From: a virus
Taxonomy: Duplodnaviria > Heunggongvirae > Uroviricota > Caudoviricetes
Length of the DNA stretch: 29,305 nucleotides
Virus record (IMG/VR): IMGVR_UViG_2728369553_000012
Reading direction: 5' to 3' (one strand)
Positions 3,238 to 7,892 of the stretch are shown piece after piece. Every line of letters starts with the position of its first letter. Position 1 is the stretch's first letter. The notes below the pieces were generated by a model. It saw nothing but the letters and a program-made list of their open reading frames with translations. It was not told where the DNA came from and did no database searches. The position numbers and the translations under genes are program-made.

Positions 3238-3509
3238 GTATTCGTATCGAAATTGGCGAACGTTATGTCGTTACCAGTGACAGCTTTCAGTTTATTCTCC
3301 ACGAGAAAAAGAGAGCGGAAAGCGGTAAAAACGCCGGTCAGGAATGGCTGGCGGTGGTTGGTTATTACCCGAAATTAAGCCAGCTCGTTTCCGGCCTGAT
3401 GCATCACGATATTCTGACCGGAAGCGCAAAGTCTTTTGCTGATTTAAACGCGCAGGTTGAGCAACTCAGCAAGCGTTGTTCTGAGGCTTTTGGCTCATAT
3501 GGCCGTTAA
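3234..3509 (+). CDS. Hypothetical early protein
   Basis: 91-codon ORF; its stop overlaps the preferred A start. Confidence 0.5.
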   Translation: MSIRIEIGERYVVTSDSFQFILHEKKRAESGKNAGQEWLAVVGYYPKLSQLVSGLMHHDILTGSAKSFADLNAQVEQLSKRCSEAFGSYGR

Positions 3510-5775
3510 AGCCTCCGGGCGTTTTGTCCCTCCGTCAGCATTTGCCGCAGGCACCGGTAAGGCGTTTACCGGTGCTTATGCATGGAACGCGCCACGCGAG
3601 GCTGTCGGGCGCGAAAGACCTCTTACACGTGACGAGATGCGTCAGGTGCAAGGTGTTTTATCCACGATTAACCGCCTGCCTTACTTTTTGCGCTCGCTGT
3701 TTACTTCACGCTATGACTACATCCGGCGCAATAAAAGCCCGGTGCACGGGTTTTATTTCCTCACATCCACTTTTCAGCGTCGTTTATGGCCGCGCATTGA
3801 GCGTGTGAATCAGCGCCATGAAATGAACACCGACGCGTCGATGCTGTTTCTGGCAGAGCGTGACCACTATGCGCGCCTGCCGGGAATGAATGACAAGGAG
3901 CTGAAAAAGTTTGCCGCCCGTATCTCATCGCAGCTTTTCATGATGTATGAGGAACTCAGCGATGCCTGGGTGGATGCGCATGGCGAGAAAGAATCGCTGT
4001 TTACGGATGAGGCGCAGGCTCACCTCTATGGTCATGTTGCTGGCGCTGCACGTGCTTTCAATATTTCCCCTCTCTACTGGAAAAAATACCGTAAAGGACA
4101 GATGACCACGAGGCAGGCATATTCTGCCATTGCCCGTCTGTTTAACGATGAGTGGTGGACTCATCAGCTTAAAGGCCAGCGTATGCGCTGGCATGAAGCG
4201 TTACTGATAGCTGTCGGGGAGGTCAATAAAGACCGTTCTCCTTATGCCAGTAAACATGCCATTCGTGATGTGCGTGCGCGCCGCCAGGCAAATCTGGAAT
4301 TTCTTAAATCGTGTGACCTTGAAAACAGGGAAACCGGCGAGCGCATCGACCTTATCAGTAAGGTGATGGGCAGTATTTCTAATCCTGAAATTCGCCGGAT
4401 GGAGCTGATGAACACCATTGCCGGTATTGAGCGTTACGCCGCCGCAGAGGGTGATGTGGGGATGTTTATCACGCTGACCGCGCCGTCAAAGTATCACCCG
4501 GCACGTCAGGTCGGAAAAGGCGAAAGTAAAACCGTCCAGCTTAATCACGGCTGGAATGATGAGGCATTTAATCCAAAGGATGCGCAGCGATATCTCTGCC
4601 GTATCTGGAGCCTGATGCGCACGGCATTCAAGGATAATGACTTACAGGTCTACGGTTTGCGTGTCGTCGAGCCACACCACGACGGAACGCCGCACTGGCA
4701 TATGATGCTTTTTTGTAATCCACGCCAGCGTAACCAGATTATTGAAATCATGCGTCGCTATGCGCTCAAAGAGGATGGCGACGAAAGAGGAGCCGCGCGA
4801 AACCGTTTTCAGGCAAAACACCTTAACCGGGGCGGTGCTGCGGGATATATCGCGAAATACATCTCAAAAAACATCGACGGCTATGCACTGGATGGTCAGC
4901 TCGATAATGATACCGGTAGGCCGCTGAAAGATACTGCGGCGGCTGTTACCGCATGGGCATCAACGTGGCGCATCCCGCAATTTAAAACGGTTGGCCTGCC
5001 GACAATGGGAGCTTACCGTGAGCTACGTAAATTGCCTCGCGGCGTCAGCATTGCTGATGAATTTGACGAACGCGTGGAGGCTGCACGCGCCGCCGCAGAC
5101 AGTGGCGATTTTGCGCTGTATATCAGCGCGCAGGGCGGGGCAAATGTCCCGCGCGATTGTCAGACTGTCAGGGTCGCCCGTAGCCCGTCGGATGACGTTA
5201 ACGAATACGAGGAAGAAGTCGAGAGAGTGGTCGGCATTTACGCGCCGCATCTCGGCGCGCGTCATATTCATATCACCAGAACGACGGACTGGCGCATTGT
5301 GCCGAAAGTTCCGGTCGTTGAGCCTTTGACTTTAAAAAGCGGCATCGCCGCGCCTCGGAGTCCTGTCAATAACTGTGGAAAGCTCACCGGTGGTGATACT
5401 TCGTTACCGGCTCCCACACCTTCTGAGCACGCCGCAGCAGTGCTTAATCTGGTAGATGACGGTGTTATCGAATGGAGTGACCCGGAGGTCGTGATGGCGC
5501 TCAGGGGCGCATTAAAACACGGACTGAGAACACCAAATCGTCAGCAAAGAAACGGAAGCCCGTTAAAACCACATGAAATTGCACCATCGGCCAGACTGAC
5601 CCGGTCGGAAAGAATGCAAATTACCCGTATCCGCGTTGACCTCGCTCAGAACGGTATCAGGCCGCAACGATGGGAGCTTGAGGCGCTGGCGCGTGGCGCG
5701 ACCGTAAATTATGACGGGAAAAAATTCACGTATCCGGTTGCTGATGAGTGGCCGGGGTTCTCGTTACCCATTTGA
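3499..5775 (+). CDS. A: Rolling-circle replication initiator endonuclease (P2 gpA-like)
   Basis: ORF 3457..5775. HUH-type motif (GTPHWHMMLF) and a tyrosine-pair motif (AAGYIAKYISKNIDGY). Start at 3499 gives 758 aa against about 761 for P2 A; the 3457 start would overlap the previous ORF further. Confidence 0.85.
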   Translation: MAVKASGRFVPPSAFAAGTGKAFTGAYAWNAPREAVGRERPLTRDEMRQVQGVLSTINRLPYFLRSLFTSRYDYIRRNKSPVHGFYFLTSTFQRRLWPRIERVNQRHEMNTDASMLFLAERDHYARLPGMNDKELKKFAARISSQLFMMYEELSDAWVDAHGEKESLFTDEAQAHLYGHVAGAARAFNISPLYWKKYRKGQMTTRQAYSAIARLFNDEWWTHQLKGQRMRWHEALLIAVGEVNKDRSPYASKHAIRDVRARRQANLEFLKSCDLENRETGERIDLISKVMGSISNPEIRRMELMNTIAGIERYAAAEGDVGMFITLTAPSKYHPARQVGKGESKTVQLNHGWNDEAFNPKDAQRYLCRIWSLMRTAFKDNDLQVYGLRVVEPHHDGTPHWHMMLFCNPRQRNQIIEIMRRYALKEDGDERGAARNRFQAKHLNRGGAAGYIAKYISKNIDGYALDGQLDNDTGRPLKDTAAAVTAWASTWRIPQFKTVGLPTMGAYRELRKLPRGVSIADEFDERVEAARAAADSGDFALYISAQGGANVPRDCQTVRVARSPSDDVNEYEEEVERVVGIYAPHLGARHIHITRTTDWRIVPKVPVVEPLTLKSGIAAPRSPVNNCGKLTGGDTSLPAPTPSEHAAAVLNLVDDGVIEWSDPEVVMALRGALKHGLRTPNRQQRNGSPLKPHEIAPSARLTRSERMQITRIRVDLAQNGIRPQRWELEALARGATVNYDGKKFTYPVADEWPGFSLPI

Positions 5776-6035
5776 GTAAAAACACAACGTGATTTGATAT
5801 GGCATTGAATGGCTTATGCGGAGCAGTTATGGGGCAGCAGAAGGTCAATAGCATGCTGAATTAGAAGGCTAAATGCTATTGAGTGACTAGCATGTCGGTA
5901 AGGACAGCCGTTTGATCCGGGTCATAAAAGGCCATCCATTTAGTCTAATAAAATCATTGCGGGTAACCTTATGTCGACGCATAATTCGTCTTGAGCGAAG
6001 TCTTGTCAGTCTTTCATCGTATTGATGATGGGCGC

Positions 6036-6065
6036 AAAAAAACCACCCTGGCAGGTGGTTTTTTT
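6036..6065. terminator. Bidirectional rho-independent terminator
   Basis: AAAAAAACCACC-CTGGCA-GGTGGTTTTTTT: a 7-bp GC-containing stem with an A-run upstream and a T-run downstream, so it can terminate both the A transcript and the minus-strand small ORF. Confidence 0.6.
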
Positions 6066-6077
6066 GTTTGAAGCATA

Positions 6078-6191
6078 TTAAAGCATAATGCTGACATTGA
6101 TATTACTGACGTTTACTGACAAACCACTCGGACTACCGTTTGGATAGCCAAAGAGGGCCAGAACGAGAATGCAGTAATAGCATTTCTTCAT
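6078..6191 (-). CDS. Small hydrophobic peptide, 37 aa (MKKCYYCILVLALFGYPNGSPSGLSVNVSNINVSIML)
   Basis: Consensus AGGAGG 4 nt upstream of the ATG (plus-strand CCTCCT at 6196-6201). Short charged N-terminus, a 13-residue hydrophobic core and a polar tail; the stop lies 12 nt from the bidirectional terminator. I checked the translation by hand. The 88-codon version in the ORF track has no such ribosome-binding site. Confidence 0.4.
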   Translation of the reverse strand: MKKCYYCILVLALFGYPNGSPSGLSVNVSNINVSIML

Positions 6192-6669
6192 ATTGCCTCC
6201 TGTAAGTAGAGGGCAACTTCCACCGGTATATGCGCTTCTTAGGTGGAATGACTTTTGAGCGAAGTCTTGCCCTGAAATAATGCTCTGTTTAAACGCAAAG
6301 TGATTTGGCATATCACCGAACAGAGAGCCGGAAAAACACAACATATAGTATGTCGTTGTTTCTAGGCATACATTCTATGTTGTGTAACAAGGGCTTTGCA
6401 TTAAACATGTTTGAGATTTTATTGATGTAGCTCAAAGTAAAAAACAGAGACTACGGATGATAAGGTCTTGAAAGCAATGTAAATTTTTTAAAGTTGCCAA
6501 TTGCTTAAAAATGTACAGTTGCGGTATGGCGTACTTAAAAAGCTATGCATGCAACAAGTGAATGTTTTTGCATGCGTTGGGGATGTCCGTTCAGGCGGCG
6601 TGCGGTCAGGACTGGTGCGGATCCATAGTATCTATGCAACTGCATTAAAACCGCCCCGTGAAGCGGGCG

Positions 6670-6688
6670 GGCGAGGCGGGGAAAGCAC
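6670..6688. other. cos cohesive-end site
   Basis: GGCGAGGCGGGGAAAGCAC, which matches the 19-nt P2 cohesive end as I recall it, about 170 bp beyond the Q stop, as in P2. Confidence 0.55.
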
Positions 6689-6830
6689 TGCGCGCTGGCG
6701 GTGGTGCTGATTTTATTTTTTCAGCGTCTGAGCGCGTCGTGATGGCGTTTAGATTGTTCGCCGGGGCGTTGGTGTGTCTGCGGGCTGTTTTGTGCGGTGG
6801 TGAGCGTGTGAGGGCGTGATGGCGGGGTGT

Positions 6831-6857: not shown

Positions 6858-7892
6858 TCAGCCGTTGTCAGTGTCCAGTGAGTAGTTTTTAAAGCGGATG
6901 ACCTCCTGACCGAGCCAGCCGTTTATTTCCCGAATCCTGTCCTGTAACGGGATTAGCTCATTGCGGACAAAGACCTTTGCCACTTTCTCAATATCGCCCA
7001 GTGACCCGACGTTCTCCGGCTTGCCACCCATCAACTGAAAGGGGATGCGGTGTGCGTCCAGCAGGTCAGCGGCGCTGGCTTTTTTGATATTAAAAAAATC
7101 GTCCTTCGTCGCCACTTCACTGAGCGGGATAATTTTAATGCCGTCGGCTTTCCCCTGCGGGGCATAGAGAAACAGGTTTTTAAAGTTGTTGCGGCCTTTC
7201 GACTTCACCATGTTTTCGCGAAGCATTTCGATATCGTTGCGATCCTGCACGGCATCGGTAACGTACATGATGTATCCGGCATGTGCGCCGTTTTCGTAAT
7301 ACTTTCGGCGGAACAGCGTGGCCGACTCATTCAGCCAGGCAGAATTAAGGGCGCTGAGATATTCCGGCAGGCCGTACAACTCCTGATTAATATCCGGCTC
7401 CAGCAGGTGAAACACGGAGCCGGGTGTGAAGGCTGTCGGCTCGTTGAAGGACGGCACCCACCAGTAAACATCCTCCTCCACGCCACGGCGGGTATATTTT
7501 GCCGGTGAGGTTTCCAGTCTGATGACCTTACCGGTGGTGCTGTAACGCTTTTCCAGAAACGCATTACCGAACACCAGAAAATCCAGCACAAAACGGCTGA
7601 AATCCTGCTGGGAAAGCCACGGGTGCGGGATAAACGTTGAAGCCAGAATATTACGTTTGACGTAAATCGGTGAGCTGTGATGCACGGCAGCACGCAGGCT
7701 TTTTGCCAGACCGGTAAAGCTGACCGGCGGCTCATACCATCTGCCGTTACTGATGCACTCGACGTAATCCAGAATGTCACGGCGGTCGAGTACCGGCACC
7801 GGCTCGCCAAAGGTGAATGCTTCCATTTTCGGGGCGCTGGCGGTGATTGTTTTTGCCGCAGGTCGCGGTGTTTTCCCTTTTTTCTTGCTCAT
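6858..7892 (-). CDS. Q: Portal protein (P2 gpQ-like)
   Basis: 344 aa, the same length as P2 Q; leftward, adjacent to cos, with an ATGA overlap onto P. Confidence 0.9.
   Translation of the reverse strand: MSKKKGKTPRPAAKTITASAPKMEAFTFGEPVPVLDRRDILDYVECISNGRWYEPPVSFTGLAKSLRAAVHHSSPIYVKRNILASTFIPHPWLSQQDFSRFVLDFLVFGNAFLEKRYSTTGKVIRLETSPAKYTRRGVEEDVYWWVPSFNEPTAFTPGSVFHLLEPDINQELYGLPEYLSALNSAWLNESATLFRRKYYENGAHAGYIMYVTDAVQDRNDIEMLRENMVKSKGRNNFKNLFLYAPQGKADGIKIIPLSEVATKDDFFNIKKASAADLLDAHRIPFQLMGGKPENVGSLGDIEKVAKVFVRNELIPLQDRIREINGWLGQEVIRFKNYSLDTDNG

Follow-up and report, generated by a model that had tools for sequence, protein, structure and literature searches.

We examined the interval between the replication endonuclease gene gpA and the cohesive-end site (cos) in a 29,305-nt stretch of viral DNA (IMG/VR record IMGVR_UViG_2728369553_000012, Caudoviricetes; hereafter the window), which is a P2-like prophage beside cpxP and is 100% identical to E. 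coli MNCRE44. The interval carries a 37-codon open reading frame (ORF) on the minus strand (6078–6191), for which the original prediction had proposed, among other options, a type I toxin-like role. We found that this ORF has a partner that the first reading overlooked, a convergent gene for a small RNA (sRNA) on the plus strand. The two genes probably form a new family of type I toxin–antitoxin (TA)-like module with a layout like that of par of Enterococcus faecalis plasmid pAD1; its toxicity and transcription are predicted. We regard the module as a new family of an already known kind, and to our knowledge a par-like design has not been described before in enterobacteria. The sRNA gene, the peptide gene with its long 5′ untranslated region (UTR) and the promoter region together make up an autonomous conserved unit at approximately 5913–6465 (∼550 bp), delimited by the stretch over which plasmid, phage-plasmid and metagenome copies are homologous. 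Homologues of its 400-bp core were de-duplicated to 13 clusters at 97% identity, reaching down to 53% identity to the window. Comparative analysis of these variants establishes the gene pair, the RNA pairing between its members, the hairpins of the 5′ UTR and the coding constraint on the ORF.

The two genes are connected by a perfect 15-nt direct repeat, TTGAGCGAAGTCTTG, whose copies at 5991–6005 (copy a) and 6255–6269 (copy b) flank the terminator and the ORF. These are the only two matches in the window, even with two mismatches allowed, vs. 0.07 expected. Copy b lies inside the 5′ UTR of the ORF’s minus-strand mRNA. Copy a lies beyond the terminator, directly 3′ of TTGCGG-17 nt-CATAAT and 5′ of a hairpin and the terminator; a plus-strand RNA running from ∼5993 to the terminator would therefore start with sequence complementary to the ORF’s 5′ UTR. 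The core of copy a constitutes the putative sRNA seed (5993–6007, plus strand), and the copy b region constitutes its target site (6257–6271, minus strand), with a duplex energy of about −29 kcal/mol. In every variant, the 3′ end of the target lies 62–65 nt upstream of the AUG.

Seed and target were joined in one alignment of 11 distinct variants, and pairs were counted by cell. The 15 core pairs (5993–6007 with 6271–6257; columns 4–18) are standard pairs in 165 of 165 cells, all 15 being kept in each of the variants. Four positions have changed on both sides: three in a Leclercia-type lineage (G-C to A-U, U-A to C-G, and G-C to A-U), in which both copies read GAGCAAAGCCUUA, and one independently in a further variant, L055 (C-G to U-A). 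All six one-sided cells are G·U, and they support the inferred directions of transcription because they would become A·C mismatches if the strands were swapped. Slid registers pair in 28–44% of cells compared with 92% overall, and the observed covariation was reached by 1 of 500 shuffles. By this comparative measure, the seed–target match is an RNA pairing kept by compensatory change. As type I TA systems have, the locus contains an adjacent gene for an sRNA that would be complementary to the putative toxin mRNA, and it is this convergent sRNA, with its 5′ end complementary to the ORF’s 5′ UTR and its compensatory changes, that argues for the type I toxin-like reading of the original prediction.

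The putative sRNA gene has a promoter-like site at 5957–5985 on the plus strand, with a −35 element TTGCGG (5957–5962), a 17-nt spacer, and a −10 element CATAAT (5980–5985). The −10 element is invariant in all 13 variants, TTG is kept at −35, and the spacing is 17–18 nt. The predicted antitoxin-like sRNA (5993–6069, plus strand, approximate ends; ∼75 nt) would consist of a single-stranded 5′ seed, a first hairpin, a terminator hairpin, and a U-tail, and its fold has a z-score of −4.66. In the consensus structure, the sequence of the first hairpin varies by lineage, its pairing is kept, and four pairs have changed on both sides. The intrinsic terminator (6035–6066), common to both RNAs, is a perfect 13-nt inverted repeat (6035–6047/6054–6066) with a CCACC/GGTGG stem extended by A7/U7 and the loop CUGGCA in the sRNA. 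Since A7 lies on one flank and T7 on the other, the terminator is expected to work in both directions. Its stem and flanks are invariant in all variants, with a single loop base differing in one lineage; such invariance amid divergence to 53% identity suggests a constraint on both RNAs. The sRNA loop includes a YUNR-type CUGG, and by analogy with par of pAD1, the complementary terminator loops could kiss. As an observation apart, many small ColE1-like plasmids have exactly the 27-nt terminator core (6037–6063) in the terminator hairpin of their RNA I (RF00106, 80 bits). The core is matched at ≥95% identity by about 700 plasmid records, for example pCRP3 (NC_003114.1) at 46–72, a likeness that may reflect either shared ancestry or convergence.

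The peptide mRNA would start at ∼6366 on the minus strand, behind a −10 element TAGAAT (6378–6373) and a −35 hexamer TGCAAA. The position of TA[AG]AAT does not differ among the 13 variants and implies a 5′ UTR of ∼175 nt; the predicted 334-nt mRNA folds with a z-score of −4.41. We predicted the leader helices with RNAalifold and then counted their pairs explicitly per cell. Upstream of the target lies a two-tier hairpin, A (6283–6325, minus strand), whose helices are 92.9% and 100% paired, with six pairs changed on both sides. Between the target and the ribosome-binding site lies hairpin B (6218–6248, minus strand), which is paired in 88.5% of cells and has double-sided changes at five of its eight pairs; the earliest hint of its covariation was a change from CCACC/GGTGG to CCGCC/GGCGG. 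If a weak helix over the Shine–Dalgarno sequence is counted as well, 14 pairs have double-sided changes, to which A and B contribute 11, and none of 500 shuffles reached the values observed for the leader helices. Folding predictions leave the Shine–Dalgarno sequence largely paired (mean unpaired probability 0.31) and the target roughly half open (0.38–0.55).

Two further ideas about this leader were set aside. A three-way RNA switch, in which sRNA binding would free an anti-Shine–Dalgarno segment, was not supported: blocking the target left the predicted accessibility of the Shine–Dalgarno sequence unchanged, and the T:X helix of that model had only moderate support, being 80% paired with a covariation that 26 of 500 shuffles reached. 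In the minimum free energy fold of the window sequence, the mRNA 3′ end pairs with the Shine–Dalgarno sequence in the manner of a Hok-like fold-back, and the complementary 3′ sequence is absent in relatives.

The ORF encodes MKKCYYCILVLALFGYPNGSPSGLSVNVSNINVSIML, a peptide with a basic N-terminus, a hydrophobic segment at about residues 4–16, and a polar tail with alternating hydrophobic residues. Four bases before its ATG is the Shine–Dalgarno sequence AGGAGG (6196–6201, minus strand), which reads GGAGG, GGAGA, or GGTGG in all 13 variants. Even where DNA identity has fallen to 53%, the ORF is intact, at 37–39 codons, and this holds in 13 of 13 sequence clusters. Variable sites are distributed 22/13/33 over the three codon positions, with an excess at the third, and the nonsynonymous-to-synonymous ratio pN/pS lies at 0.07–0.50 in all 36 pairwise comparisons. 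Judged from these substitutions, the ORF is under purifying selection at the protein level. Extension of its frame to 88 codons runs into in-frame stops in 12 of 13 variants, 11–33 codons upstream. Public collections list a protein for the corresponding 88-codon ORF (6078–6344, minus strand; P0004, 88 aa), and because the extension is not conserved, we regard that call as over-extended. The consensus of the peptide is ...C-I-L-V-L-[AT]-L-F-G-Y-P-x-G-S-x-S-G-[WL]-S-V-N-V-S..., in which a hydrophobic stretch of ∼13 residues is followed by a conserved G-Y-P-x-G-S-x-S-G turn. At 37–39 aa, it falls within the size range of the small (<60 aa) hydrophobic peptides of type I TA systems, and a natural guess from its sequence is that it would insert in the membrane as a signal anchor.

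We found the module at 53–100% identity across E. coli genomes, plasmids, phages, and metagenome contigs. It is present in 152 of 5426 complete E. coli genomes (85 at ≥99% and 65 at 90–95% identity), in three records of sequenced P2-like phages (two of which are one genome), in 30 IMG/VR contigs, in 22 metagenome contigs, and in three genomes of Kluyvera, Leclercia, and Citrobacter. Moreover, 388 large plasmids cover ≥80% of the core at ∼74–77% identity; most are Klebsiella IncF plasmids, and others come from Enterobacter and Leclercia. Within this P2 sublineage, the module always directly follows gene A, and any variable cargo lies on its cos side: terminator and cos are separated by 634 nt here and at 19 other loci, 726–728 nt at six, ∼2260–2266 nt at three, and ∼3290 nt at six. 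On a Leclercia IncFII plasmid, the module follows traI/dsbA, and another copy adjoins an Abi_2 gene and a resolvase. It also occurs in an N15-like linear phage-plasmid (IMG/VR UViG_3300011594_000020, position 5766), between a gene for a 1383-aa Toprim/primase-like protein and the protelomerase gene TelK, so it moves between unrelated temperate-phage backbones. Judged by these contexts, the module behaves as an autonomous unit of the accessory regions of mobile elements.

Several neighborhoods deserve a record of their own. Relatives at 90% identity have extra cargo between module and cos, at 3637–4122 in phage MET_P1_103_31 and at 3636–4812 in a second locus (L002). One such item, in MET_P1_103_31, is an ImmA/IrrE (Peptidase_M78) gene; the other ORFs have no Pfam match. 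A 161-aa gene to the right of the module in both MET_P1_103_31 and an Enterobacter plasmid was considered as a linked gene and rejected; the two genes are unrelated, and their equal length is coincidental. On pJ53-KPC_Vir, a KPC/virulence hybrid plasmid of Klebsiella type (L004, 1–7570), the module sits amid an operon of the CBASS type, encoding a SAVED effector, a nucleotidyltransferase, and ThiF-family and MPN-family proteins, together with IS elements, among them a frameshifted IS110, and an annotated dinQ type I toxin gene; these genes together form a small island of defense and addiction genes. One metagenome contig (L052) holds two diverged copies, at 3411–3441 and 6331–6361, which lie 2.9 kb apart and belong to different 97% clusters. 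Multiple copies per replicon are common for type I TA loci.

Annotation is nearly silent on the module. None of the RefSeq records inspected has a feature from the Prokaryotic Genome Annotation Pipeline (PGAP) at this site, and the ORF is annotated only in phage MET_P1_103_31. Rfam returned no family at gathering score anywhere in the window and, at E ≤ 10, only subthreshold matches, most of them over the terminator hairpin and including RNAI and OrzO-P. The peptide had no significant match in Pfam, NCBIfam, or PHROGs and, by the Pfam and NCBIfam searches, belongs to no known toxin family; the original prediction had not recognized it either. Three variants searched against the anti-phage defense collection PADLOC-DB v2 had no match at E ≤ 10. 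An exhaustive HMMER search over 1.84 billion representatives retrieved seven proteins and a word-index protein search three; all of these unnamed proteins correspond to this ORF, either as such or in an over-extended call. Full-text literature searches for the peptide, seed, and terminator strings yielded nothing relevant.

Among known systems, the layout is closest to par of pAD1, in which the Fst toxin mRNA is RNA I and the antitoxin is RNA II (PMC7472228), and to the related par-like loci of Gram-positive bacteria. The module shares with par its convergent promoters, a single bidirectional intrinsic terminator, and mutually complementary terminator stem-loops (PMC7472228). In both, a DNA direct repeat read in opposite directions provides a second, 5′-proximal complementarity, an intramolecular structure covers the Shine–Dalgarno sequence, and the product is a small hydrophobic peptide. 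In contrast to par, the hosts here are enterobacterial, there is one repeat instead of DRa and DRb, and the repeat pairing misses the initiation region, the target ending 62–65 nt upstream of the AUG. The peptide also lacks the PXXXG(C) motif and the charged C-terminal tail of the Fst/Ldr toxins, and we found no sequence relationship between the module and par/Fst.

In peptide style, the closest known toxin is TimP, which is repressed by a trans-encoded sRNA, TimR, that pairs with its 5′ UTR (PMC7667032). Like TimP (41 aa in K-12), the peptide falls in the range of 37–41 residues and has a basic N-terminus, a signal-sequence-like segment, and a polar Asn/Ser-rich tail, and both TimP and some module variants have C-x-C-I at residues 5–8. 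However, the TimR gene of the ryfA locus is divergent and upstream in K-12, whereas the sRNA gene here is downstream and convergent with a shared terminator, and TimP belongs to the chromosomal core of Salmonella and E. coli, whereas the module resides on mobile elements. Homology to TimP, which the shared C-x-C-I had brought up, was rejected: there was no BLASTP alignment and no match to RyfA (RF00126) even at E ≤ 10. The NCBIfam TimP model NF040796 gave 86.8 bits on E. coli TimP but, at E ≤ 10, failed to match any of the five variants scanned with it, which came from plasmids, genomes, and metagenomes; a separate scan of the peptide from the window returned no NCBIfam match.

The position of the target has other parallels. 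In TisB/IstR-1, ZorO/OrzO, ShoB/OhsC, and DinQ/AgrB of E. coli, a trans-type sRNA likewise matches a short stretch (∼15–20 nt) of a long, structured toxin 5′ UTR, at a considerable distance 5′ of the ribosome-binding site (PMC3919570). Their sRNA genes, unlike the one here, are divergent and upstream, and they have no shared terminator. The peptides are unrelated to those families, having no match in NCBIfam, a collection under whose names DinQ and Hok family toxins appear in RefSeq. The match to OrzO-P (RF02083) scored 21 bits against a gathering score of 60, lay on the wrong strand, and covered the terminator only, and no Rfam, Pfam, or NCBIfam family match was found to ZorO/OrzO, TisB/IstR-1, ShoB/OhsC, DinQ/AgrB, Ibs/Sib, Ldr/Rdl, or Hok/Sok. 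Hok/Sok is a peptide–antisense RNA pair of plasmids and prophages that acts by post-segregational killing and has been reported to exclude phage T4. The module resembles it in having a weak toxin promoter and a stronger antitoxin promoter. It differs in that Sok overlaps the mok/hok leader in cis and in that the 5′–3′ fold-back of Hok has no conserved counterpart here; no Hok family match was obtained in Pfam or NCBIfam.

Beyond these comparisons, we infer that both genes are transcribed, which of them regulates the other, that the peptide is toxic, and what the module does for its carrier (stabilizing a prophage or plasmid, or abortive defense). The weak promoter with its −10 at 6378–6373 would give a minus-strand mRNA of ∼330 nt whose structured 5′ UTR of 175 nt would present, in order, hairpin A, the half-open target, hairpin B, and the mostly sequestered Shine–Dalgarno sequence before the 37-residue peptide. 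The better promoter at 5957–5985 would give the convergent plus-strand sRNA of ∼75 nt, and both RNAs would stop at the shared terminator. They would then be complementary twice, through a ∼31-nt cis-antisense overlap at the terminator and through the sRNA’s 5′ seed against a 15- to 17-nt site ∼63 nt upstream of the AUG. The sRNA would prevent the peptide from being made until the element is lost or transcription is blocked. Direct occlusion of the ribosome-binding site is unlikely because the target lies ∼63 nt from the AUG. Pairing at such a distance implies indirect repression, by occlusion of a standby site or by cleavage. Here, the sRNA would most likely repress by covering a site farther upstream where ribosomes stand by or load, in the manner of IstR-1 with tisB and OrzO with zorO, and/or by triggering cleavage of the duplex.

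A number of results weigh against this reading of the module. The −35 element of the mRNA promoter is poor, and a consensus promoter scan flags neither the sRNA nor the mRNA promoter, the former lying below its threshold. The helix sequestering the Shine–Dalgarno sequence is 63% paired by column count, and the switch mechanism described above finds no support, the unpaired probability of that sequence being 0.31 with the target free and 0.31 with the target blocked (p = 0.54). The covariation of the seed–target helix comes from few independent lineages, two in the case of the double changes. Unlike most type I toxins, the peptide has a hydrophobic stretch of only ∼13 residues and an uncharged tail. 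An AlphaFold2 model of the single peptide had low confidence (pLDDT 60), its sole feature being an N-terminal helix at residues 3–14, and was not used. Finally, transcription is deduced from the DNA: in Klebsiella pneumoniae MGH 78578, the sole strain checked that has differential RNA sequencing (dRNA-seq) and RIL-seq data (PMC10907235), plasmid pKPN3 does not carry the module.

A more specific version of the proposal, in which the module is a hitherto unrecognized enterobacterial type I TA family for abortive-infection defense or addiction at the cos-proximal hotspot of P2, is possible but doubtful. The short-lived sRNA would decay once an incoming phage stops transcription in the host or the cell loses the prophage or plasmid; the stable, prefolded mRNA would then be activated, and the signal-anchored peptide would damage the envelope. 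The module would in that case be a fixed, resident defense or stabilizing element beside swapped defense cargo and a Gram-negative counterpart of par(pAD1), including the kissing of terminator loops.

An alternative that we consider unlikely is that the sRNA controls a small membrane protein that is not a toxin, such as an exclusion or defense effector or a modulator of a host membrane protein, with no post-segregational killing. Such a role would suit a peptide that is signal-anchor-like and whose uncharged tail of alternating polarity is unlike pore-forming type I toxins, as well as its site in the P2 defense hotspot (PMC9122126). Moreover, TimP, the nearest analogue in peptide style, allows growth at endogenous expression after deletion of its sRNA (PMC7667032). 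Against this stand the long structured UTR, the sequestered Shine–Dalgarno sequence, the dedicated sRNA, and the stand-alone spread on plasmids and phages, all of which typify type I TA loci, and there is no PADLOC match.

It is very improbable that the 15-mer repeats are protein-binding DNA sites, that the ORF is an independent small gene, and that no RNA–RNA pairing takes place. Direct repeats that flank a gene can be operators or recombination sites, and the transcripts of the module are deduced, not observed; the module, however, occurs in unrelated replicons (P2-like phages, IncF plasmids, and an N15-like element) that have no common protein, and one copy of the repeat coincides with the +1 position of a conserved promoter and precedes both a covarying hairpin and a terminator. 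The one-sided changes are, six out of six, strand-specific G·U wobbles, which only RNA pairing would lead one to expect.

That the locus is a decaying remnant of lost cargo, as had also been suggested, or a nonfunctional spacer with a chance ORF is scarcely credible: despite its AT-richness and the absence of PGAP annotation in hundreds of genomes, it shows purifying selection (pN/pS 0.07–0.50, with the ORF intact in 13 of 13 clusters), covarying RNA helices, and conservation across different mobile elements to 53% identity, recurring on plasmids and a phage-plasmid in copies too divergent for the recent transfer of one sequence. The related concern that relatives carry the same sequence as spacer is right insofar as the sequence is unannotated in many of them and wrong in that its substitution pattern is that of coding sequence.

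The apparently empty state of the P2 hotspot keeps a conserved, probably RNA-regulated peptide module. Surveys of P2 and P4 hotspots would read the locus as empty or as a small intergenic region because they are based on called genes; the terms small RNA, noncoding, and type I toxin are not used in the P2-hotspot papers PMC9122126 and PMC13586616. Some 3% of complete E. coli genomes have the module, as do hundreds of IncF plasmids of clinical relevance in Klebsiella and Enterobacter, yet it is invisible to PGAP, Rfam, Pfam, and NCBIfam. Should it prove to be a true toxin–antitoxin pair, it would be a new determinant of plasmid and prophage stabilization, possibly of defense, and a clean natural example of the par-type convergent, shared-terminator arrangement outside the Firmicutes. 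The covarying seed–target pair is well suited to compensatory mutagenesis.

The surrounding locus is bounded by the stop codon of gpA at 5775 and the end of the portal gene Q (minus strand) at 6858, and the interval between gpA and gpQ is a P2 defense hotspot that holds tin and old in P2 itself (Rousset et al., PMC9122126), which agrees with the earlier identification of this slot as the site of tin/old cargo. The whole gpA-to-cos interval occupies 5776–6669 (894 bp), followed by a P2-type cos, ggcgaggcggggaaagcac, at 6671–6689. Its G+C content is 38–44%, against 50–60% in the flanks; the description of an AT-rich slot of ∼0.9 kb with one well-signaled 37-codon ORF and a terminator was accurate, as was the statement that no other ORF is well signaled, since the listed ORFs of 41, 42, 69, and 88 codons have no conserved signal. 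The view of the locus as collapsed fits only in part: the window does represent a module-only state, but a conserved module of ∼550 bp remains, and the cargo slot is separate from it. The cos-proximal 135 bp (6535–6669) are also found in other P2-like phages that do not have the module.

Upstream of the mRNA promoter lies a conserved block (6385–6460). These ∼75–90 nt upstream of the −10 element are kept in all variants despite the poor −35 and contain, on the plus strand, the blocks TTTGCATCAAAGATGTTT and TTTTATTGAT..AGAACAAAGTAAAAA; they may bind a regulator or belong to yet another RNA element. On the other side, 70 nt past the gpA stop, a perfect 10-nt inverted repeat (TCAATAGCAT/ATGCTATTGA, 18 nt apart, 5845–5882) has no T-run and is partly kept, though only among P2-like relatives; possible roles are those of an RNA element and of a stabilizer of the gpA transcript end. 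A further direct repeat, D1 (5780–5809/6291–6320, 73% identity), was considered as the trace of a degenerate second module copy, an idea we dropped because its local alignment score of 25 lies within the range of shuffled sequences (mean 18, maximum 27). Finally, more than 10 complete E. coli chromosome records, including NZ_CP168035.1, NZ_CP185789.1, and NZ_CP074033.1, begin at the first base of the P2 gpA gene, with the module at 2442–2842; start-fixing tools apparently mistake the prophage replication endonuclease for the replicon’s initiator gene.

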